DNA of 64,000 nucleotides, taken from contig OZ024752.1 of the NCBI GenBank assembly GCA_964016885.1, positions 33,790,001 to 33,854,000 on the forward strand. The letters run 5' to 3'. The notes beneath the pieces are model-generated. The model had not been told where the DNA came from and made no database searches. It worked only from the letters and a program-made list of their open reading frames with translations. The position numbers and the translations under genes were made by a program. This DNA comes from Eledone cirrhosa (taxonomy: Eukaryota). This document shows positions 10,916 to 28,380 of this stretch, piece by piece. Numbering within the stretch: position 1 is the stretch's first letter; the number at the start of each line of letters is the position of its first letter.

Positions 10916-12691
10916 GAACTTTGCTTGTTCTGTTGCTATAAATGAGTGTGTGTGATCTATGGTATTATAAACGAGCATGGTCTGGTGGGGGAATAGAGTA
11001 TCACAGAGAGAGAGAGAGAGAGAGATAAGAAGAGAAACAGTGTATTGCAGAAGATGATGAGAATAGAGACAGTGGTGAATGTTGTGAAGAGAAATAGACT
11101 GAGATGGCTGAGTCATGTGATGAGGAAAGGTGGATGGGAATGAATATTGGAAAAAGGAGATGATCAAGAAAGACATGGAGAATGAAATGTAACAAAAATC
11201 TTTGATGTTTTAACAGTTCTTTTGGTTCGATTTCTTACAAACCCCCCCCCCCCCCACACCTCTACCCCTGTTTTATTTTACTCTTTCTTTTTATTTGCTC
11301 TTATTGTTTTGTTTTAAATCCTTGTTTAACCCCCTGCCTGCCCTTCTCTTCTCTCTCTCCTCCTCTCTCACCCCTTCTCTTCCTCTCTCCCACCTTTCTC
11401 ACGTTTCTAGGTGACCGATGCATTGTTGTGCCATTTCTTGCTGGTAGAGGTGTAAGTAGGTTATGGCAAGCATGGCACATGTCATGGACTCCACATGAAG
11501 GGGGCGCCACTTGGACTGGGAGCATTTTCTATTAAATTCAGATAAGCTATCGTCGGAGAGTGAAAAAAGAAACTCCTTCAGATCTGTCTTTGATTATCTT
11601 GGGTGAGAAGCACTATGGTGGTTGGATCATTAAACCATTTATATAAATTATTTGGCCCATAGATAATAATACAGTGCTGGTAAGGGGTGCAGTTTCACTA
11701 CATTCCATAAGATCTTCAAGAATAGTCATAACTAGGGTGAATAGTCAGACTGGGTGATGTGTTGTTTCCTTGAGCAAGACACTTTATTTCACATTGCTCC
11801 AGTTTACTCAGCTGTAGAAATGAGATGATAGGGACTGGGGTCCATATCATTCCACTGCAAAGTGGTCGTGTAGGTGCCACGGCAAAAAAGCACACAGCAC
11901 TCACAGTAAATGAGGTGGGTGTTAGGAAGAGCATCCAGCCGTAGAAATCAAGCCAACATCAGTTCCCGTCCCACCCTTGCAAGCAGAGAAAAAGCGGACG
12001 TAAAATGAAATGATGATGATGATGATGATGAGGGAAAATAGCTCTTATGGCATGTAGTGAAACTGCACCCCTGCCCAACACTGGGTTATTTTCCCTAGTT
12101 ATGACTATTCTTGAAGATCAAGCAACTGTATCATGGCTTCAATGTTGGCTCAAAGGAAGATAGAAGTTCTAGTAGGCTCTAATCTAAGGTCTATTTGCTT
12201 GGAACCACATTTCTAGGTGATTTGTCTCAAAGTTAGAATAGTATCTATAACTAAGTCTAAAAAATGGTCGCAATAGAATTCTGATGATTGATGTCTGTAT
12301 ATGATGATGTAGCTTGTTTGTTGGTGTATAGAAAGGTTGTGTGTTCATGTACAAGGAGATGAAGGGGGTAAGAGGCCAGATTCTTGCAGTACCCATCAAA
12401 AGAGAGTTTAATATATTATTTTTGGGTGTTTATGAAAAAAAAACAAAAAAAAACAAAAATAAAACTTTTCTTTAGATGCTCAACCTGCTGTAAGTTGCAA
12501 CATAATCAATCCCCTTCAAACTACTCCCTATAGTAGTTTGAAGGGGATTATAGTGTCAAAAAGAGGAAATGTATATTGAAGAATTTATGTACGAGAATAC
12601 TGAGTGAGTTTTATGAAGAAGTTGACAAAGGAGAAAAAAATTACGAAGTAAAGGAGATATATGTATATCCTTACAAGCAGGGAAAGTGGAC

Positions 12692-13056
12692 GTGGTGGTG
12701 GTGGTGGTGGTGGTGGTGATGATGATGATGATGATGGTGGTGGTAATGATGGTGGTGGTGATGATGGTGGTGGTGATGATGGTGGTGGTGATTATGGTGG
12801 TGGTGGTGATGATGATGATGGTGGTGGTGATGATGAAGGTGATAATGGTGATGGTGGTGATGGTGATGGTGGTGATGGCGGTGATGGTGGTGATGGTGGT
12901 GATGATGATGGTGGTGGTGATGCTGGTGGTGGTGATGATGGTGGGTGGTGATGGTGATGGTGATGATGGTGGGTGGTGATGGTGATGATGATGATGGTGG
13001 TAATGATGATGATGGTGATGGTGATGGTGATGATGGTGATGATGATGGTGATGATG
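12692..13056. repeat. (GGT/GAT)n trinucleotide microsatellite
   Basis: Direct inspection. Confidence 0.95.
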
Positions 13057-13212
13057 TGTTTACTTCGAAGAGGAAAAAATATATATAAGCAAATCTAAGA
13101 GAAAAATTAATTTTCAAACACTTTCCTAGTTTAGTTTGTCAATTCAGCAATTTGGATATGAGAAAATGGTTTTATGGTATTTCTTTAAAAATCTCTTTAA
13201 AATAATTTTTAC

Positions 13213-13731
13213 AGATGGAAGCCTTGGAGTGGGGGAGACCCGAGAAGACCTGAGATGAGGTGATAAAAGCTGACCTTACCCAATTGCACCTCTTAAAGGT
13301 GATGACACAGGACCGAGACTTCTGGCATTATGCAGAAGACCCGACTTCCCACGGGTACAAGCCGAAGCTGAAGCATATAGACAGTATGCCCCCACCCCGC
13401 TCCCACAGTAAAGTGGTTGTGGAGGTGCCATGGCAAAAAAGCACCCAGCCCACACTGTAAAGTGGTCGTGTAGGTGTCACAACAAAAAGCACCCAGACCA
13501 CATTGTAAAGTGGACGTGTAGGCGCCACGGTAAAAGAGCACCCAGTACTCACTGTAAATGAGGTTGGTGTTAGGAAGGGCATCCGGTTGTAGAAATCAAG
13601 CCAAAATCAGTTCCATATGAGCAAGACATGGTCACCTGACTTAGCATTGCCCACAACAGGACAACCCGTCTAGCCGATGCTAGCATGGAAGAATGGACGT
13701 AAAACAGTAATGATGATGATGATGATGATGA
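13213..13731 (+). mobile_element. RTE LINE 3' fragment
   Basis: GRP..T.DEVIKADLTQLHL remnant, 3' UTR repeats, gttggtgttaggaagggcatcc motif and (GAT)n tail. Confidence 0.85.
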
Positions 13732-13961
13732 GATGGATATTCTTTTTCTCGGTACCCATGTAACCATGAAGTAAGAGTGATGTGCTTTATCAAAGAGCAT
13801 TGTAAAATACTTGTAACAAGGTTTGAATTTATTGTGCTTTTTAGTTTTTCTAGCAGTTATATTAGATGAAAAGTTAATTTTTTTAATTAATTCTGTATCA
13901 ATATTATCACACTTGACAGAATAAACCTAAAACGTACAATTCTTTAGCCACTTATTCCTGG

Positions 13962-14570
13962 GAGGTGTTGGTAGAATTACAAATTATAATGTATTACAGG
14001 TGTTGGTAGAATTACAAATTATAATTAATATATAACAGGTGTTGGTAGAATTACAAATAATGTATTACAGGTGTTGGTAGAATTACAAATTATAATTAAT
14101 ATATAACAGGTGTTGGTAGAATTACAAATAATGTATTACAGGTGTTGGTAGAATTACAAATTATAATTAATATATAACAGGTGTTGGTAGAATTACAAAT
14201 AATGTATTACAGGTGTTGGTAGAATTGTTACCAATTATAATTAATGTATTACAGGTGTTGGTACTAATTATAATTAATGTATTACAGGTGTTACCAATTA
14301 TAATTAATGTATGACAGGTGTTGGTAGAATTGTTACCAATTATAATTAATGTATTGCAGGTGTTACTAATTATAATTAATGTATTACAGGTGTTGTAACC
14401 AATTATAATTAATGTATTACAGGTGTTACCAATTATAATTAATGTATTACAGGTGTTACTAATTATAATTAATGTATTACTTGTGTTACTAATTATAATT
14501 AATGTATTACAGGTGTTAGTAGAATTGTTGCCAATTTTAATTAATGTATTACAGGTGTTGGTAGAATTCA
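13962..14570. repeat. AT-rich minisatellite (~30-48-bp variable units)
   Basis: tgtattacaggtgttggtagaattacaaattataattaa repeats. Confidence 0.9.
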
Positions 14571-14761
14571 ACGATAACAAATAATAATTGTTTCTACTTT
14601 TGGCACAAGGCCAGCAATTACCCAGTGCATTACTGGTACTTTATTTTATCGACCCCGTAAGGATGAAAGGCAAAGTTAACCTCGATGGGATTTGAACTCA
14701 GACCGTAAAGGGACGTAACTATGCAAATAATAATGGTAAACAAAGTACTGGAGCAGAGTTC

Positions 14762-15290
14762 ATACCCCCATCACACCAACCTGGGCTACCCACCATCACA
14801 CCAACCTGGGCTACCCATCATCACACCAACCTGGGCTACCCACCGTTACACCAACCTTGGGTTACCCACCATCACACCAACCTGGGCTACCCACCATTAC
14901 ACCAACCTTGGGCTACCCATCATCACACCAACCTGCGCTACCCACCATCACACCAACCTGGGCTACCCATCATCACACCAACCTGAGCTACCCACCATCA
15001 CACCAACCTGGGCTACCCACCATTACACCAACCTTGGGCTACCCACCATCACACCAACCTGGGCTACCCACCATCACACTAGCCTTGGCTACCCACCATC
15101 ACACCAACCTGGGCTACCCACCATTACAGCAACCTTGGGCTACCCACCATCACACCAACATTGGGCTACCCACAATTAGACCAACCTTGGGCTACCTACC
15201 ATTACACCAACCTTGGGCTACCCACCATTACACCAACCTTGGGCCACCCACCATTACACCAACCTTGGGGCCACCCACCAACACACTAGC
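14762..15290. repeat. ~25-27-bp minisatellite
   Basis: caccatcacaccaacc(t)tgggctacc repeats. Confidence 0.9.
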
Positions 15291-15699
15291 CCTCACCTCT
15301 CTTCAACATCACATCGGCCTTGTCCCCCACCCAACCATCACTTCAGTCTTAACCCACCCACCCACCACACACACGCAAATTATAAATAATTCAAAAATAA
15401 AAACTGCTTCATGTAGTCAGAGGTCAATAACAGAGGAATGTACACTTTGTATCTGATAAATAAAATATACAACACTACACTAAACTAATAAGAAATAAAC
15501 CGCTACCGGTACCAGATAAAAATGGTGGCAATCTAAACATAAAGTTGTACAAATAAAACAGAAAAAGGTATAAACAAACACAAAAGGAATATGTTTCTAG
15601 TGAAACATATTCCCTACCATCTCCCCTCCCAGAAACCTCTCCAATATCTCAAAGGATTTTCCCCACCCGTCTCAAGTTTCTGACCTCCTCTATAAAGTG

Positions 15700-16075
15700 A
15701 ACCCGCTGAAGCCACGACAAAAGAGCCCAGCCCACACTATAGGGGTCATGTAGGTGTCTTGACAAAAGCGAGCGCCCATTCCACACTGTAGAGTGGTCGT
15801 GTAGGTGACACGAGAAAAAGCACCTAGTCCACACTGTAAAGTGGTCGTGTAGGCGACACGAGAAAAAGCACCCAGCCCACGCAGTAAAGTGGTTGTGTAG
15901 GCGACACAGCAAAAAGCACCCAGCACACACTGTAAATATGGTAGAAACCAAGCCAAAATCAGTTCTGTGTGAGTGAATCACAGTCTCCCGACCTGATTCC
16001 TGACAAAAGGACAGCACGTCCTACCCATGCTAGTGGGGAAGATGGATGTTAAACAATGATGATGATGATGATGAT
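15700..16075 (+). mobile_element. RTE LINE 3' UTR fragment with about 5 internal ~48-bp repeats
   Basis: aaaaagcacccagcccacactgtaaagtggtcgtgtagg repeats and a (GAT)n tail. Confidence 0.7.
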
Positions 16076-16693
16076 AGTGAACCTGCATGCATAACTTACT
16101 GCAGATACTCTACTTCAAAAACAAAAATAATACAACAAGGTATTAGTAAAATAAAATGTGGAGGAAATAGCTCAGATCTAACTGTAATTAATGTCAGACC
16201 CCCAACAGACTAGCTAATGTAAGAAGATATATTCTAAAGAGATAAAAACGGAAAAACATCAGAAATGGAAGAGGAACATTTAAAAGAGAGAATACATCAT
16301 AAAATCAAAAATAAATCAAAATAATTAACAAAAACAAAACCGAAAAAAGCATACAGGAGATAAAACCCATGTACAAAACAGTATGGGTATGGTATGGATC
16401 TGTAACTCCTTTATTTAATTCGTACATGCATGGAGAGAGGGGATTGGCTCCACCAGGTTTTAAAATGCCCTAAGAAAAATCTCTAACTTTAGAAATGACG
16501 AAAGTTGAAACAACATAAGTCAAGGTATATATAACAAAGTGTGGTAAGATAACAGGTGGACCATAACACACCAGAGTACTCGATACTTAGGGTAGTAGAG
16601 TGGGTAATAGGAAAATAGTCAGGGGTCCTGACTCTTTTCCTATATATATATTTATATATATATATATATATATATATAGTGAAGACTAAAATA

Positions 16694-18045
16694 ATGTGAA
16701 GACTAAAATGCGAAGAGGGTTCAATAAGGAGAAATATATATCAAATACTAGCATTAAAGCCCGGCGTTGCTCGGGGTCATTAAGTTACCAAAGTTAGGTT
16801 GCACCACCCATTTTATGGCAGCACTTTTTGTCTGCCAGGCACTGGGTGAATGGAAGCAGGAGCTGCGCCAGCAGTGACAATTGTAGTTTCGCCTATGGAT
16901 ATTATCTCTGTGCAAAAAGTGTTGAAATTTATTGTTTCACAGTACTTGCGCAACACGCGCGTAGACGATGCCAGCCGAACAACAGAGCTGCGATGGAGTT
17001 GTTCTGCATGGTTGTCTGTGTGTTTTCTAAATTTAAGACAGTAGGGAGGGTTGTGATATGAGGGAGAGTTAGCTGTTGTTTCTAGCAGGTTTAGTAACCT
17101 CATAGAGGATATGTTTTCTAAATTTAAGACAGTAGGGAGTGGTGTGATATGGGGGAGAGTTAGCTGCTGTTTCTAGCAGGTTTAGTGACCTCATAGAAGA
17201 TATGTTTTCTAAATTTAAGACAGTAGGGAGGGGTGTGGTATGGGGGAGAGTTAGCTGCTGTTTCTAGCAGGTTTAGTGACCTCATAGAGGATATTATTGT
17301 GTATCATTATCTATAAAAGGCAGATTGTTGTTGTTGAAGTGAGTGTGTTTTTGTATGCGTTTGGAAAAGAGGTTTTAAAAAAGATTTATCGCTTGTTGTT
17401 GAATAAATGTATCTGTTGCTTTTGAATAATTGTCGTTTCGTATGAAATGTAATAATTTGAAGTATAAAAGAGAAAGTAGCAAAATGTGTGGGTTGTAGAT
17501 AGAGGGTTGCAGATGATATGACAGAGTAATACGGACAGTATCACCATCAAGCTTGGAAAGAGAAAGTAGCAGAAAGTATGAAGTTGTACAGATTTTGAAT
17601 GGTAGTGGAAAGTTTAACTGACAGAGAAAAATCGTAAAATATTGAGTTTTATCTATTTTTTGCGTAATTGTGGGTGAAATTGAAAAAATGAGATGTGCTA
17701 AGACGCAATCGAAACTATTTCGAATACTGAATTGTAAATTTCAATTGAAGAAATTCTATATCGTAGATTTCTATAAGAAAGGAGCCTGACCACACACTGA
17801 GCTTTATAGATTATGATATAAGAACCGTAGAGCAAATATTTGTTAAAATAACAGATTAAAGTTTAAGCAAAGAATCGCTGCTTTCACCCTTAACCGGATC
17901 TTCTGAAGATCCCGTTAAGGGTGAAAGCAGCGATTCTTTGCTTAAACTTTAATCTGTTATTTTATTAAATATTTGCTCTACGGTCCTTATATATTTGATA
18001 TATATTTATCTTTATTGAGCCCTCTTCGGATTTTAGTCTTCACAT
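16694..18045. repeat. Fold-back element (~140-bp arms, centre at 17903) interrupted by a Helitron; related fragment at 3271-3340
   Basis: 16694-16747 plus 17817-17902 is the reverse complement of 17904-18045. Confidence 0.8.
16748..17816 (-). mobile_element. Non-autonomous Helitron
   Basis: Minus strand starts TC and ends with hairpin cccgagcaacgccggg, 8 nt, then CTAG. It sits between A and T with no TSD; the empty site is readable from the opposite palindrome arm. It contains three 91-bp tandem repeats at 17021-17293. Confidence 0.8.
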
Positions 18046-18140
18046 TTATTAATATTACTACCCATGCTAGTGTGGAAGATGGACGTTAAACGAAGATGAT
18101 GATGAAACGGCTTGAGCTCTGCCGTCGGGGTCATACATTT

Positions 18141-18199
<59 letters not shown>

Positions 18200-18837
18200 T
18201 ATATACACACACACACACATACAAATTTATTATTATTATTAGTGGATTGGCAGTATTGGCAGAGGGTCGGACGCCATGCTTTGAAGCATAGAGTTACGAC
18301 GGCCCTTGCAATTCTGAGTTCAAATCCCGCCGAGGTTAACTTTGCCTTTCATTCTTACGGGGTCGATAAAATAAAGTACCAGTAATACACTGGGGTAATA
18401 GTTGGCCTTGTGCCAAAAGTAGAAACAATTATTATTATTTATTCATGTTTATATATGGAACAAAAGCGCTACCTAAGGTTTCAATATTTACCATATCTCC
18501 AGAATGTAAGAGGGGTCAAAATTGTGACCTAATCTTCAGGTGTTTTTATGAGTTTATCCATATACATATATTATGATATATACATATATGTAATGTTTTT
18601 GGATGTGTAATATTAGTGTGTGAAGATGATGATGTTAAAAGATTTATGACCAATGGGAGAAGACAACAGAAAACTACTTCAAAGTATTTTACTTAAACTC
18701 TAAATAACAATTGCTGGCTGTGTTTGAGAGAGAGAGAGAGAGCGCAATCAAATGTTTATAGGCTGTAACCTCATGACATAGCTTGATATTTTAATTTAAA
18801 AGAAAAGAACAAAATCAATCACTATATATATATATAA

Positions 18838-19975
18838 GGCGCCGGTCCCTTCCGGGAAATGGCCATGCTCAGTGTGTAGGAAAGGCGTAGGTAGAAACTC
18901 CATTTTATGTCCCAAATGCAAAGTATGGGTGCATAAAAGATGTAGTGGGATCACAGGTAAGCTAACTAAGAACACAGATTTTACATGTGGCCGGTGCTCT
19001 GGTGCAATAAGTAGCAGCAAGTGCCCACAAAATACTAGCTCTTTCAATTGCGCAGAGGGTTCTATAGAAATAGTGGACAGCTTCCGTTACCTGGGTGACA
19101 AAATCAGCAGTGGGGGAGGGTGCTCTGAAAGTACAGTAGCTAGAGTCAGAACTGGATGGAAAAAGTTCAGAGAGCTTATACCACTATTAGCCGCTAAAGG
19201 GTTCTCCCTAAAAAATGAAAGGCAGGTTGTATGATGCCTGCATACGAACAGCAATGTTGCATGGCAGTGAGACCTGGGCATTGTGTGCAGAGGATATACG
19301 CAGACTAGAGAGGAACGAAGCTTGCATGCTCCGCTGGATGTAGCAGACTCAGAAAAACCTGGGACGAGCTGATAAATTCCGACCTCACACACTTACACCT
19401 CTCCAAGACAATGTCACTGGACCGAGACCTTTGGCGGTACTCAGTAATAGAGAAGACCCGCCTTACCTAAATACAAAGTAAAACCTACTACAGTCAGCAG
19501 GCATCTCTAACAAAATACACCCCCGTCTCACCACCCCCACCCCATCCACACCGCCCCTTTCAATGTAAAGTTATGTTGGTGCCACAACATCCAGGCCGAA
19601 ACATATGAGATCGTGTAGGTGTCATGACAAAAAAAACACACAGTCCACGCTGTAATGTGGCCGTGTAGGTAACACGGTAAAAACCTCCCAGTCCCACACT
19701 GTAAATGTGGTTGGTGTTAGGAAGGGCATCCAGCTGTAGAAAACCTGCCAGACAGTCCACGCTGTAATGTGGCCGTGTAGGCAACACGGTAAAAACTTCC
19801 CAGCCCCACACTGTAAATGTGGTTGGTGTTAGGAAGGGCATCCAACTGTAGAAAACCCGCCAGACAGTCCTATGCGAGCAAGACAACCACTCTTGCCTCA
19901 AGTGGGAAAACTCCCGTCCAAACCCATGCAAGCGTGGCACACGGACGTTAAACGATGATGATGATGATGATGATA
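18838..19975 (+). mobile_element. Degenerate RTE LINE fragment of a second subfamily, with internal deletion
   Basis: CRKGVGRNSILCPKC..VHKRC..VDSFRYLGD..ARVRTGWKKFREL, followed by 3' UTR repeats and a (GAT)n tail. Its 3' part is also present at 28755-29205. Confidence 0.85.
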
Positions 19976-20024
19976 TTGAACAATAAAGGTTATTTTAATT
20001 ATGACAATTAGAAAAGTTACTTAC

Positions 20025-21651: not shown

Positions 21652-22611
21652 TCAGCAGCTGTGCTGAAACAGCAAGCAAACAGCCACAGGAAACAAGTAC
21701 CACCAATCTCTGGGAGGGCCCTGTAGAAACAGTAGACAGCTTCTGCTACCTAGGTGACCGAATTAGCAACGGAGGTGGGTGCTCAGAAAGTACAATAACT
21801 AGGGTAAGAACGGGATGGAAGAAGTTTAGGGAACTACTACCACTGCTAGCTGCAAAAGGCTTCTCCCTCAGAATGAAAGGCAGACTGTATGATGCGTGTA
21901 TCCGAACAGCGATGTTGCATGGTAGTGAGACCTGGGCGCTGAAGGTGGAAGACTTACGTAGATTAGAGAGAAACGAAGCCTGCATGCTCCGATGGATGTG
22001 TAATACGTGAACGACAAAGCATAAATGAATTGAGAGAGAGACTGAGCATAAGAGGAATCAAATGCTGCGTGCAGGAGAGGCGGTTACGCTGGTATGGACA
22101 TGTGATGCGTATGAAGGATGACAGCTGCATAAAAAGGTGCAGAGCACTAGAAGTTGATGGAAACCGCGGAGTGGGGAGACCCAAGATGACTTGGGATGAG
22201 GTGATAAAAGCCGACCTTACCCAACTACACCTCTCAAAGTCAATGACACACGACCGTGACTTCTGGCGTCACGCAGTAATACAGGGTACCCGACCTCCCA
22301 TGGGTACATGCTGAAGCATATAAACAATATGCCCCCCCCCCCCCACCGCAAGGTGGTCGTGGAGGTGCCACGGCAAAAAAGCACCCAGCCCACACTGTAA
22401 AGTGGACGTGTAGGCGCCACGAAAAAGCACCCAGCACTCACTGTAAATGAGGTTGGTGTTAGGAAGGGCATCCAGCTGTAGAAATCAAGCCAGATCAGTT
22501 CCTGTATGAGCAAGGCATGGTCAGCCGACCAGACACTGCCCACAACAGGACAACCCGTCTAACCCATGCTAGCGTGGAAGAACGGACGTAAAACGGTGAT
22601 GATGATGATGA

Positions 22612-22699: not shown

Positions 22700-22765
22700 T
22701 ATTTTATTATACATATTTCAGAGGTACTGAGCTATTTCATCAGTACGTCCTCATCAGATAAAATA
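22700..22765 (-). ncRNA. Minimal type I hammerhead ribozyme motif in a tsg intron (sense strand)
   Basis: Minus strand reads tattttat CTGATGA ggacgtactga-tgaaatagc-tcagtacctct GAAA tatgta TA ataaaata, with a perfect 8-bp stem I. Confidence 0.75.
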
Positions 22766-22818: not shown

Positions 22819-22888
<70 letters not shown>

Positions 22889-22947
22889 AGTGAGGTTTTT
22901 TTTACAAAATGAAAAATAACCGAGGTGTCCTACACGAGTGAAAGTAT

Positions 22948-23984
22948 AAAGAAAAAAAGATGAAATCGAAAATGCAACTGGAGTCTTATTTTTTTTTTTT
23001 TTTTAAATATATATATTTATTTGGTTCCTTTACCGGTTTCGCAGTTCTTCTGCTTTTCAAAAGGTGAGTTGAGATGGAGGGTCTGTGGTTTTTCTCACAA
23101 ACCCTCCATCTTTTTCTCACAGACCCTCCATCTCAACTCACCTTTTGAAAAGCAGAAGAACTGCGAAACCGGTAAAGGAACCAAATAAATATATATATTT
23201 ATTTGGTTCCTTTACCGGTTTCGCAGTTCTTCTGCTTTTCAAAAGGTGAGTTGAGATGGAGGGTCTGTGGTTTTTCTCACAAACCCTCCATCTTTTTCTC
23301 ACAGACCCTCCATCTCAACTCACCTTTTGAAAAGCAGAAGAACTGCGAAACCGGTAAAGGAACCAAATAAATATATATATTTATTTGGTTCCTTTACCGG
23401 TTTCGCAGTTCTTCTGCTTTTCAAAAGGTGAGTTGAGATGGAGGGTCTGTGGTTTTTCTCACAAACCCTCCATCTTTTTCTCACAGACCCTCCATCTCAA
23501 CTCACCTTTTGAAAAGCAGAAGAACTGCGAAACCGGTAAAGGAACCAAATAAATATATATATTTATTTGGTTCCTTTACCGGTTTCGCAGTTCTTCTGCT
23601 TTTCAAAAGGTGAGTTGAGATGGAGGGTCTGTGGTTTTTCTCACAGACCCTCCCTCCATCTTTTTCTCACAGACCCTCCATCTCAACTCACCTTTTGAAA
23701 AGCAGAACAACTGCGAAACCGGTAAAGGAACCAAATAAATATATATATTTATTTGGTTCCTTTACCGGTTTCGCAGTTCTTCTGCTTTTCAAAAGGTGAG
23801 TTGAGATGGAGGGTCTGTGGTTTTTCTCACAAACCCTCCATCTTTTTCTCACAGACCCTCCATCTCAACTCACCTTTTGAAAAGCAGAAGAACTGCGAAA
23901 CCGGTAAAGGAACCAAATAAATATATATATTTAAAAAAAAAAAAAAATAAGACTCCAGTTGCATTTTCGATTTCATCTCTTTTT

Positions 23985-23990
<6 letters not shown>
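22948..23990. repeat. Fold-back element with five tandem 182-bp palindromic units, each carrying a U3-A8 hammerhead motif on both strands
   Basis: Outer inverted repeats near 22948-23010 and 23920-23990; unit markers at 23023, 23205, 23387, 23569 and 23755; motif cctt TTGAAAA gcag-aagaa-ctgc GAAA CCGG TA aagg (e.g. 23141-23178). Confidence 0.8.
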
Positions 23991-24026
<36 letters not shown>

Positions 24027-24028
<2 letters not shown>

Positions 24029-24208
24029 CGAAGGAAATGTGGTAAGGAACCAGGTGGACCATAACGCACCAAAGTACTCAATACTTGGGGTAGTAGAGTG
24101 GGTAATAGGAACCAGTAAGACCCCGACAGCTGAGCTCAAGCCGTTTCGACGGCTAATTAGCCGTCGAAACGGCTTGAGCTCAGCTGTCGGGGTCTTACTG
24201 GTTCCTAT
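24027..24208. repeat. (TA)n-flanked element ending in a perfect ~100-bp palindrome; relatives at 2417-2580, 16530-16641 and fragments at 18104-18143, 29695-29800
   Basis: Shared ggtggaccataacgcac..agtactc..gtagagtgggtaatagg followed by a hairpin of variable length. Palindrome 24106-24209 is centred on ctaattag. Confidence 0.8.
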
Positions 24209-26206: not shown

Positions 26207-28380
26207 TAACAAAAGCACCCAGTCCACATTGTAAGGTGGTGATGCTGGTGACATGACCAAAAGCACCCAGTCCACACTGTTAAGAGGGCCTGCTGGTGAC
26301 ACGACAAAAAGCACCCAGTCCACACTGTAAGGTGGTGATGCTGGTGACATGACCAAAAGCACCCAGTCCACACTGTAAGGCGGTCGTGCTGGTGACACAA
26401 CAAAAAGCACCCAGTCCACATTGTAAGGTGGTGATGCTGGTGACATGACCAAAAGCACCCAGTCCACACTGTAAGGTGGTGATGCTGGTGACATGACCAA
26501 AAGCACCCAGTCCACACTGTTAAGAGGGCCTGCTGGTGACACGACAAAAAGCACCCAGTCCACACTGTAAGGTGGTCATGCTGGTGACACAACAAAAAGC
26601 ACCCAGTCCACAATGTAAGGTGGTCATGCTGGTGACATGACCAAAAGCACCCAGTCCACATTGTAAGGTGGTTGTGTTGGTGACACGACCAAAAGTACCC
26701 AGTCCACACTGTAAGGTGGTGATGCTGGTGACATGACAAAAAGCACCCAGTCCACACTGTAAGGTGGTGATGCTGGTGACATAACCAAAGCACCCAGTCG
26801 ACACTGTAAGGTGGTTGTGCTGGTGACATGACCAAAAGCACCCAGCCCACACTGTAAGGCGGTCGTGCTGGTGACACAACAAAAAAGCACCCAGTCCACA
26901 TTGTAAGGTGGTGATGCTGGTGACATGACCAAAAGCACCCAGTCCACACTGTAAGGTGGTGATGCTGGTGACATGACCAAAAGCACCCAGTCCACACTGT
27001 TAAGAGGGCCTGCTGGTGACACGACAAAAAGCACCCAGTCCACACTGTAAGGTGGTCATGCTGGTGACACAACAAAAAGCACCCAGTCCACAATGTAAGG
27101 TGGTCATGCTGGTGACATGCCAAAAGCACCCAGTCCACATTGTAAGGTGGTTGTGTTGGTGACACGACCAAAAGTACCCAGTCCACACTGTAAGGTGGTG
27201 ATGCTGGTGACATGACAAAAAGCACCCAGTCCACACTGTAAGGTGGTGATGCTGGTGACATAACCAAAAAACACCCAGTCCACACTGTAAGGTGGTTATG
27301 CTGGTGACACAACAAAAAGCACCCAGTCCACAATGAAAGGTGGTCGTGCTGGTGACACAACAAAAAAGCACCCAGTCCACATTGTAAGGTAGTCATGCTG
27401 GTTACATGACCAAAAGCACCCAGTCCACACTGTAAGGTGGTCGTGCTGGTGACACAACAAAAAGCACCCAGTCCACACTGTAAGGTGGGTCATGCTGGTG
27501 ACACAACAAAAAAACACCCAGTCCACACTGTAAGGTGGTTATGCTGGTGACACAACAAAAAGCACCCAGTCCACAATGAAAGATGGTCATGCTGGTGACA
27601 TGACCAAAAGCACCCAGTCCACATTGTAAGGTGGTTGTGCTGGTGACACGACCAAAAGTACCCAGTCCACAATGTAAGGTGGTCGTGCTGGTGACATTAC
27701 CAAAAGCACCCAGTCCACATTGTAAGGTGGTTATGCTGGTGACACGACAGAAAGCACCCAGTCCACACTGCAAGGTGTTGATGCTGGTGACATGACCAAA
27801 AGTACCCAGTCCACATGGTAAGGTGGTTGTGCTGGTGACACGACAAAAAGCACCCAGTCCACACTGCAAGGTGGTGATGCTGGTGACATGACAAAAAGCA
27901 CCCAGTCCACACTGTAAGGTGGTTGTGCTGGTGACACGACCAAAAGCACCCATTCCACACTAAGGTGGTGATGCTAGTGACATGACAAAAAGCACCCAGT
28001 CCACACTGTAAGGTGGATTGCTGGTGACAAGACCAAAAGCACCCAGTCCACACTGTAAGGTGGTCGTGCTGGTGACACAACAAAAAGCACCCAGTCCACA
28101 CTGTAAGGTGGTCATGCTGGTGACCTCACCAAAAGCACCCAATCCACACTGTAAGGTGGTCGTGCTGGTGACAACAAAAAGCACCCAGTCCACAATGTAA
28201 GGTGGTCGTGCTGGTGACATGACAAAAAGCACCTAGTTCACACTATAAGGTGGTTGTGCTGGTGACAGAAAAAAAGCAACCAGTCCACACTGTAAAGTGG
28301 TCATGTTGGCGACACAAAAAGAAGCACCCAGTCCACAATGTAAGGTGGTCGCATTGGTGACATGACAAAAAGCACACTGT
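26207..28380. repeat. 48-bp minisatellite (~45 units) related to RTE 3' UTR repeats
   Basis: Unit aaaagcacccagtccacactgtaaggtggtgatgctggtgacatgacc; the variant taagagggcc recurs at 26281, 26521 and 27001. Confidence 0.95.

Follow-up and report, generated by a model that had tools for sequence, protein, structure and literature searches.

The array and its flanks

The 64-kb window (the whole stretch of DNA analysed, 64,000 nucleotides) contains a tandem array at 23004-23933 on the forward strand, consisting of five direct units and a closing 16 bp (23918-23933). The units start at 23004, 23186, 23368, 23550 and 23736 and are 182, 182, 182, 186 and 182 bp long, respectively. Each has an antisense arm and, beyond an asymmetric junction of 30 nt, a sense arm; the two arms are 84 bp long and 100% complementary, in agreement with the sequence-only reading, which had described five fold-back units of 182 or 186 bp. 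The period of the array opens and closes exactly on a perfect 16-bp AT palindrome, which is present in six copies (23004-23019 and at 23186, 23368, 23550, 23736 and 23918). The head-to-head junction (23100-23117, + strand) is made from short pieces of both arms with a 22-bp duplication; it has the same orientation in all five units and occurs at this locus only. Three differences are private to unit 4: a 4-nt insertion, an A/G substitution within its junction and, in loop II of its + arm, a G/C substitution.

Every arm carries a hammerhead motif with a U3-A8 core. A descriptor scan of the whole 64-kb window, in which any pair was allowed at positions 3 and 8, found exactly five such motifs per strand, and thus the ten that had been claimed. 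On the - strand they lie at 23027-23064, 23209-23246, 23391-23428, 23573-23610 and 23759-23796, and on the + strand at 23141-23178 (predicted cut after 23174), 23323-23360, 23505-23542, 23691-23728 and 23873-23910. The motif comprises stem I (CCTT/AAGG), stem II (GCAG/CTGC), an ACCGGT palindrome and a GUA triplet. It has the make-up of a minimal type I hammerhead, with the core N3-U-G-A-N-N8-A / G-A-A-A / U-H, the G10.1-C11.1 pair and three stems, of which stem III consists of a single pair and a palindrome that could base-pair in a dimer. In an Rfam E-value scan no hammerhead family appeared among the 150 of 186 matches listed; those listed were of hairpin type only and fell below their gathering scores. 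As judged by eye, the antisense arm also holds a consensus 5' splice site across stem I (23056-23069, + strand), and the cut triplet opens a donor-like GU-A-A-A-G stretch (23172-23177, + strand). Four canonical C3-G8 type I hammerheads with an AUA triplet, belonging to another repeat family, lie elsewhere in the window at 22700-22765 (-), 3498 (-), 3611 (+) and 5770 (+).

The array is framed by two outer arms set between (TA)n tracts at 22822-22885, the insertion target, and 23988-24027. The left outer arm (22884-23099, - strand) is the 5'-truncated 3' end of an element, matching by blastn positions 422-637 of a reference from the end of the full-length copy L075. It starts ~69 nt upstream of the predicted cut and finishes at the long end with a tail (22884-22944, - strand), which is found on this arm only and corresponds to the 68 nt between the two ends of the family (loose ends at L075 2169 and 2237). 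The right outer arm (23850-23990, + strand; reference 434-569) begins 57 nt before the predicted cut; it has the short end, without the tail. The earlier description of the array was therefore accurate in substance, but it began at 22948, whereas the left outer arm reaches 22884 through the ~68-nt tail. A second, unrelated head-to-head pair lies in the same (TA)n run at 24028-24208. It also has one long and one short end, contains a perfect 104-nt palindrome and is probably another Penelope-type end; its family recurs in many of the loci examined. The window further contains a fragment of the 3' region of a LINE reverse transcriptase (21700-22300, identified by eye) and two different 48-bp satellites (26211-28375 and 37037-64000), the second of which fills 27 kb and shows higher-order periods. 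Together with SINE-like tails, the LINE fragment would fit a host of the octopus type.

The parent Penelope-like element and its hammerhead

The exact 38-nt motif had 6196 matches in the 3.0-Gb genome and its reversed control had none, so the motif is not due to chance. A sister subfamily, first noticed as two common variants in sequencing-run contigs aligned to L075, added 4510 exact matches, giving 10,706 for the two subfamilies; these figures count motif matches and not insertions. The aligned contigs, from four runs, made both the second subfamily and the two 3' ends visible and held no joints bearing on splicing or cutting. In longer copies the sequence upstream is a UTR of ~1.1 kb, preceded by the end of a GIY-YIG domain. 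In L073, L074 and L075 the order on one strand is hammerhead, ORF1 (400 aa), a reverse transcriptase (RT)/GIY-YIG frame (775 aa), 3' UTR and hammerhead, with the hammerheads 5' and 3' of both frames ~4.7 kb apart. Because copies of the motif extend to the GIY-YIG domain and intact copies are flanked by hammerheads, the arms of the array are the pLTR end (3' end) of a young Penelope-like retroelement. This element had been overlooked in the sequence-only reading, which suggested that transcripts of the array could be cut into retrozyme- or viroid-like monomers.

The 775-aa frame or an extension of it was found in 14 of 14 regions around long open frames. It has 670 homologues at E<=1e-50, and its closest protein relatives are 56-74% identical. 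The Pfam GIY-YIG domain (PF01541) passes its cut-off (27.6 against 22.6 bits), and RVT_1 (PF00078, E 4.9e-6) falls just under its own (26.8 against 29.6 bits). Before the nuclease, at about residue 645 of P0001, there is a C-x4-C-x2-C linker; a CX2-5CxxC linker is described as a mark of the Neptune and Nematis types (Craig et al. 2021, PMC8557442). We use the clade name Neptune, as opposed to Nematis, provisionally, on the basis of the linker, since the RT tree holds unnamed relatives alone. The coding region departs from the single ORF of EN+ Penelope-like elements in having two overlapping frames, and the first Met of the RT frame is residue 163; the legend of Fig. 1 in Craig et al. (PMC8557442) permits a frameshifted ORF1 in some types. 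No Pfam family matches ORF1, which shares 88 nt with the RT frame in a -1 relation (L075:3371-3458). The overlap contains an in-frame U-UUU-UUA heptamer, retained in 19 of 21 matches at the examined loci of the same genome; among 13 relatives the heptamer stands in the same frame relation in five, and two have one fused ORF. Judged from these frames, programmed -1 frameshifting between ORF1 and the RT frame is likely. We found no description of frameshifting in Neptune elements in the openly accessible main-text literature.

The motif is a hammerhead of the U3-A8 type, as had been claimed, and the variant is a published one. Perreault et al. 2011 (PMC3088659) list U3-A8 as a natural covariant and report it as already shown to be active in vitro, and Cervera and De la Pena 2014 (PMC4209133) describe it ~1,300 times in Schistosoma, including in Cercyon Penelope elements. 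The statement that searches fixed on CUGANGA would miss the motif also holds; in this genome they miss more than 10,000. The earlier claim that positions 3 and 8 changed in compensation is borne out across related elements and not within the family. In 83 related loci from public contigs, scanned with a descriptor free at positions 3 and 8, all 21 sense-strand matches (19 loci) were Watson-Crick at 3-8, comprising 17 C-G, some of them from near-duplicate loci, two U-A, one G-C and one A-U. The relatives in this test were up to 49% identical. The same loci gave four antisense matches, of which two were mismatched at 3-8, and a shuffle control gave 0.6 matches per set, with 1 of 12 Watson-Crick. 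On the RT tree (22 rows) three changes are needed to explain the three U3-A8 rows, as well-supported branches dictate, although these could be a single gain followed by two losses. The two nearest relatives with a match have C3-G8, an identical layout and different palindromes in stem III. No motif was found in 11 of the 14 closest loci examined, even in a looser scan, often because the contigs stop close to the ORF. Further C3-G8 hammerhead families were seen in the examined loci, one of which has compensatory changes in stem II.

Within the family we counted 17 single changes at position 3, eight single changes at position 8 and no double change. Such a lack of covariation is expected of young, dead copies. 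C3-G8 relatives within the family, considered as support for covariation, were not found among the copies scored, and this line of support was dropped. In the sister subfamily (4510 matches) 30 of 30 loci have an uncompensated mismatch that leaves a contiguous stem I of 3 bp, an argument against tight selection on stem I.

In this Penelope-like family a head-to-head truncated pair in (TA)n is ordinary, and the outer frame of the window array is such a pair. Both orientations of the motif occurred within 600 bp in 23 of the first 30 loci of the exact motif search, corresponding to 16 of 22 distinct insertions, and 14 of these 16 inverted insertions pair one long end with one short end (68 nt earlier), as does the window pair with its long end on the left and short end on the right. 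The older subfamily is inverted at 10 of 30 loci. Published elements of this kind likewise show truncated copies in inverted orientation, a tail on one side and insertion into (TA)n (PMC8557442; Arkhipova et al. 2013, PMC3846280). In the work of Frangieh et al. 2024 (PMC11167929) a Penelope protein is reported to extend both strands, beginning at two internal sites whose positions set the tail. Going by that in vitro work, the element protein would extend both strands of a cut in AT-rich DNA, and reverse transcription would begin at two internal sites to give two arms with unequal 3' ends (the 68-nt tail). Since the window arms start at -69 and -57, both would have reached about the 5' end of the RNA and been copied from uncut RNA, and they may then have been joined through short template switches.

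Probable origin of the array and predicted fate of its transcripts

We regard it as highly probable that the locus consists of head-to-head truncated Neptune-type 3' ends in (TA)n, the core of which was likely expanded five-fold in place between 16-bp palindromes, with array hammerheads that are predicted to be inactive and the same motif likely cutting in the parent RNA. By geometry, a palindrome inside an inverted pair is a direct repeat, and thus slippage or unequal exchange between two 16-bp copies would multiply the 182-bp core between them. The loop junction of the unit has four genome matches, all in the window array and all forward (none reverse), as the junction of unit 4 differs and is unmatched. 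The tail-to-tail junction has eight, of which four are in the window array, three in the C25 array and one in C11. The C25 array (L068:1310-1750) is an independent array of the same family with four units and a 104-bp period. It is purely head-to-tail and bounded by the same AT palindrome, and each of its units contains a single complete hammerhead; motifs on both strands are hence no requirement for expansion. Unit 4 is less simple. A single slip between the 22-bp junction repeats would account for its two junction changes, but it stands between identical units, which one-step slippage alone does not explain.

The best surviving alternative is that all five units came from one insertion event, in which the reverse transcriptase jumped template repeatedly at the AT palindrome with no later slippage. 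Short template switches are frequent at junctions of the family, four rows of the cut-site sample described below restart at the cut as small tandem repeats, and four of the five units are identical, all of which this account would accommodate. It would however require five exact returns to a single 16-bp site, it leaves the divergence of unit 4 aside, and just two multi-unit arrays were found among more than 10,000 motif matches; we consider it unlikely. Perfect hairpins are hard to sequence. The copy number of five is a figure of the assembly, and Craig et al. (PMC8557442) note assembly problems at such insertions, so the repeat number could be an artefact of a single fold-back. Against this, unit 4 carries its private differences, thousands of similar fold-backs are unexpanded, a second array exists with another period and the assembly has contigs of up to 443 Mb, which leaves the artefact as a minor and quite improbable rival to expansion in place.

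Folding of two units, on either strand, gave rods of ~-290 kcal/mol in which the pairing probability of stem I is ~1e-43. Forcing one motif to form in two units cost +68 kcal/mol and forcing two cost +132, values that come from a monomer-style constraint with the dimer helix outside the model. In the native pLTR, forming the motif costs +3.3 kcal/mol. Whichever strand is transcribed, the antisense arm of a motif comes before the motif itself, so co-transcriptional folding is of no help. Stems I and II are thus predicted to be buried, as a transcript of either strand would zip up into a long double-stranded rod. The caveat that the fold-back may sequester the ribozymes, raised in the sequence-only reading, turns out to be decisive. 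At ~68 kcal/mol per hammerhead, a 182-nt ladder or 182-nt circles from the array are unlikely in this model, and the array, if transcribed, would more likely yield long double-stranded RNA.

These values bear on the proposal that the array is a retrozyme or viroid-like source of 182-nt monomers, in its fullest form a nascent two-polarity retrozyme in which dimeric hammerheads release 182-nt rods that are circularised and re-insertable. Several features fit such a unit. Motifs on the same strand recur in tandem at 182 nt, each unit with a type I hammerhead, within the 170-400 nt described for animal retrozymes (PMC7229834); the circular monomer folds as a rod (-131.6 kcal/mol); retrozymes are reported to be kin to Penelope pLTRs (bioRxiv 10.64898/2026.07.22.740005); and a Penelope hammerhead is reported to be assisted by protein in vitro (PMC11167929). 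The burial of the motifs behind antisense arms made before them stands against it. So do the ends of the array, which lie on the palindrome and not at the cut, and the precursor of one unit, which would have one motif per strand and no possible release of a monomer. A dispersed family of units was looked for and is ruled out by the junction, which is unique to this locus. We therefore judge the retrozyme account very improbable. The motifs of the C25 array are far less buried (+21.6 kcal/mol for two), and in terms of modelled folding that array is the better retrozyme candidate for this reason. Rolling-hairpin DNA synthesis, to which the sequence-only reading had likened the alternating architecture and with which hairpins alternating at two kinds of turn would agree, would flip the loop in alternate units, yet the asymmetric loops face one way in five of five units and the C25 array is also purely head-to-tail, so loop orientation rules this origin out and we give it practically no credence.

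Insertion ends at the predicted cut

The cut site had been predicted before insertion ends were counted. A 35-mer anchor downstream of the motif has 7378 matches, from which 92 arms were mapped and 66 placed by script (14 past the reference). Among the 66 placed ends, 37 lie at -75 to -57, three within the 56 positions before the cut and two exactly at the cut. Most copies thus run through the motif uncut, and the pile-up 57-75 nt upstream of the cut is probably the transcription start. Inspection of the 26 unplaced arms by eye added single ends at 0, +1 and +2 and another near -1, and showed five arms that continue upstream with a changed anchor. Copies with a non-A base directly before the cut have 239 matches, and 99 of the 100 listed were classified: 57 rows are point changes or small indels, 38 are true starts at the cut and four are restarts at the cut. 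The 38 rows, which include three loci counted for both arms, one internal deletion and a few that are ambiguous between 0 and +1, have no element sequence upstream of the cut. They scale to ~92 starts genome-wide compared to 6-12 expected per position (upper bound 19-34), assuming 11,000-20,000 arms.

A second, internally controlled sample was taken from copies with TATATA within 26 nt of the anchor (100 of 897 rows listed, three loci shared with the earlier sample) and scored by eye. It gave nine events at 0, five at -2 to 0 and 12 over the 18 positions from -20 to -3, where no position had more than two; the excess at 0 has a P of 3e-6. Under a distance rule against ascertainment, seven events at 0 compare with 0.62 per position (P 4e-6). 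Downstream of the cut the same sample has four events at +2, two at +4 and six at the chance-prone positions +5/+6, which may reflect trimming or a stall unrelated to cutting. Dependence of the cut-ended copies on the fourth pair of stem I was considered and rejected, as they are not enriched in the subfamily with the 4-bp stem (20 of 33 against 58% expected, P 0.86). One locus (L410) has an inverted pair whose two arms each begin at the predicted cut, with a piece of 28S rRNA between them (Rfam E 7.7e-23). The junction of a cut-starting copy with this rRNA is in sense, and a 3-nt microhomology might account for the jump. At another locus (L249) a GC-rich piece of ~165 nt is joined at the cut, which Rfam did not call and which, we presume, resembles 18S rRNA.

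Family copies begin exactly at the predicted cut far more often than at its upstream neighbours, which is an indirect sign of cleavage in vivo. We propose that a small share of the parent RNA would be cut after the GUA triplet and that reverse transcription running off the cut end would leave copies starting exactly there. On balance we favour the view that a U3-A8 Penelope hammerhead cuts in vivo, as recorded by about a hundred insertions that start exactly at the scissile bond. With similar, measured confidence, the junctions suggest that some insertions restart at the cut or jump from it to ribosomal RNA, the majority deriving from uncut RNA. The excess of starts at the predicted cut over upstream positions is new here; no report of a genomic footprint of insertion ends at a Penelope hammerhead cut was found in the openly accessible main-text literature.

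The texts consulted (PMC4209133, PMC8557442, PMC11167929) call the role of Penelope hammerheads unclear and describe it as lacking in vivo evidence. The pile-up of insertion ends, together with rRNA joined at the cut, provides an indirect in vivo sign, and the parent family therefore carries more weight than the array. If this is true, a family with thousands of copies, two stem I subfamilies and intact, frameshifted coding copies would be a ready system for studying the role of the hammerhead. The array itself is real and was made locally; no ribozyme activity is predicted for it, and both its hammerhead variant and the kind of retroelement that carries it were already known. It is a rare by-product of little weight, though together with the C25 array it indicates how an internal palindrome can turn an inverted Penelope insertion into the seed of a tandem repeat.

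Comparison with known systems

The closest system is that of the Neptune-type EN+ Penelope-like elements as described in PMC8557442 and PMC3846280. The present family shares with them the RT, the Cys-rich linker, the C-terminal GIY-YIG domain, partial-tandem pLTRs with a sense-strand hammerhead, the inverted 5'-truncated copy, the tail at one end and the (TA)n target. It differs in a tail of 68 nt compared to 30-40 and in an RT frame that has no early ATG and overlaps the 400-aa ORF1 in a -1 relation; a fold-back core expanded five-fold, as at the present locus, was not encountered in the texts consulted. The swap in the core is shared with the natural U3-A8 covariants listed in PMC3088659 and with Cercyon of Schistosoma mansoni (PMC4209133), whose account also gives a Penelope pLTR and dual motifs on opposite strands 100-700 bp apart. 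In contrast to Cercyon as described, the present motif has a 4-bp stem II without an extra base and a palindromic 4-nt stem III, and the family has more than 10,000 near-identical copies with insertion ends piled at the predicted cut.

Animal non-LTR retrozymes, according to Cervera and de la Pena 2020 (PMC7229834) and Li et al. 2026 (bioRxiv 10.64898/2026.07.22.740005), have short tandem units of Penelope pLTR origin with, like the window array, one type I hammerhead per unit per strand. The window array differs in its perfect fold-back, which is predicted to bury the motif, in having motifs on both strands and in its single locus. For PAc, a Poseidon element of Anolis, Frangieh et al. 2024 (PMC11167929) describe two internal start sites that explain the tail, extension of both strands and uncut RNA as the main template. 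No RNA-seq reads were found at the PAc cut site in that work, whereas in the present family genomic copies pile up at the predicted cut.
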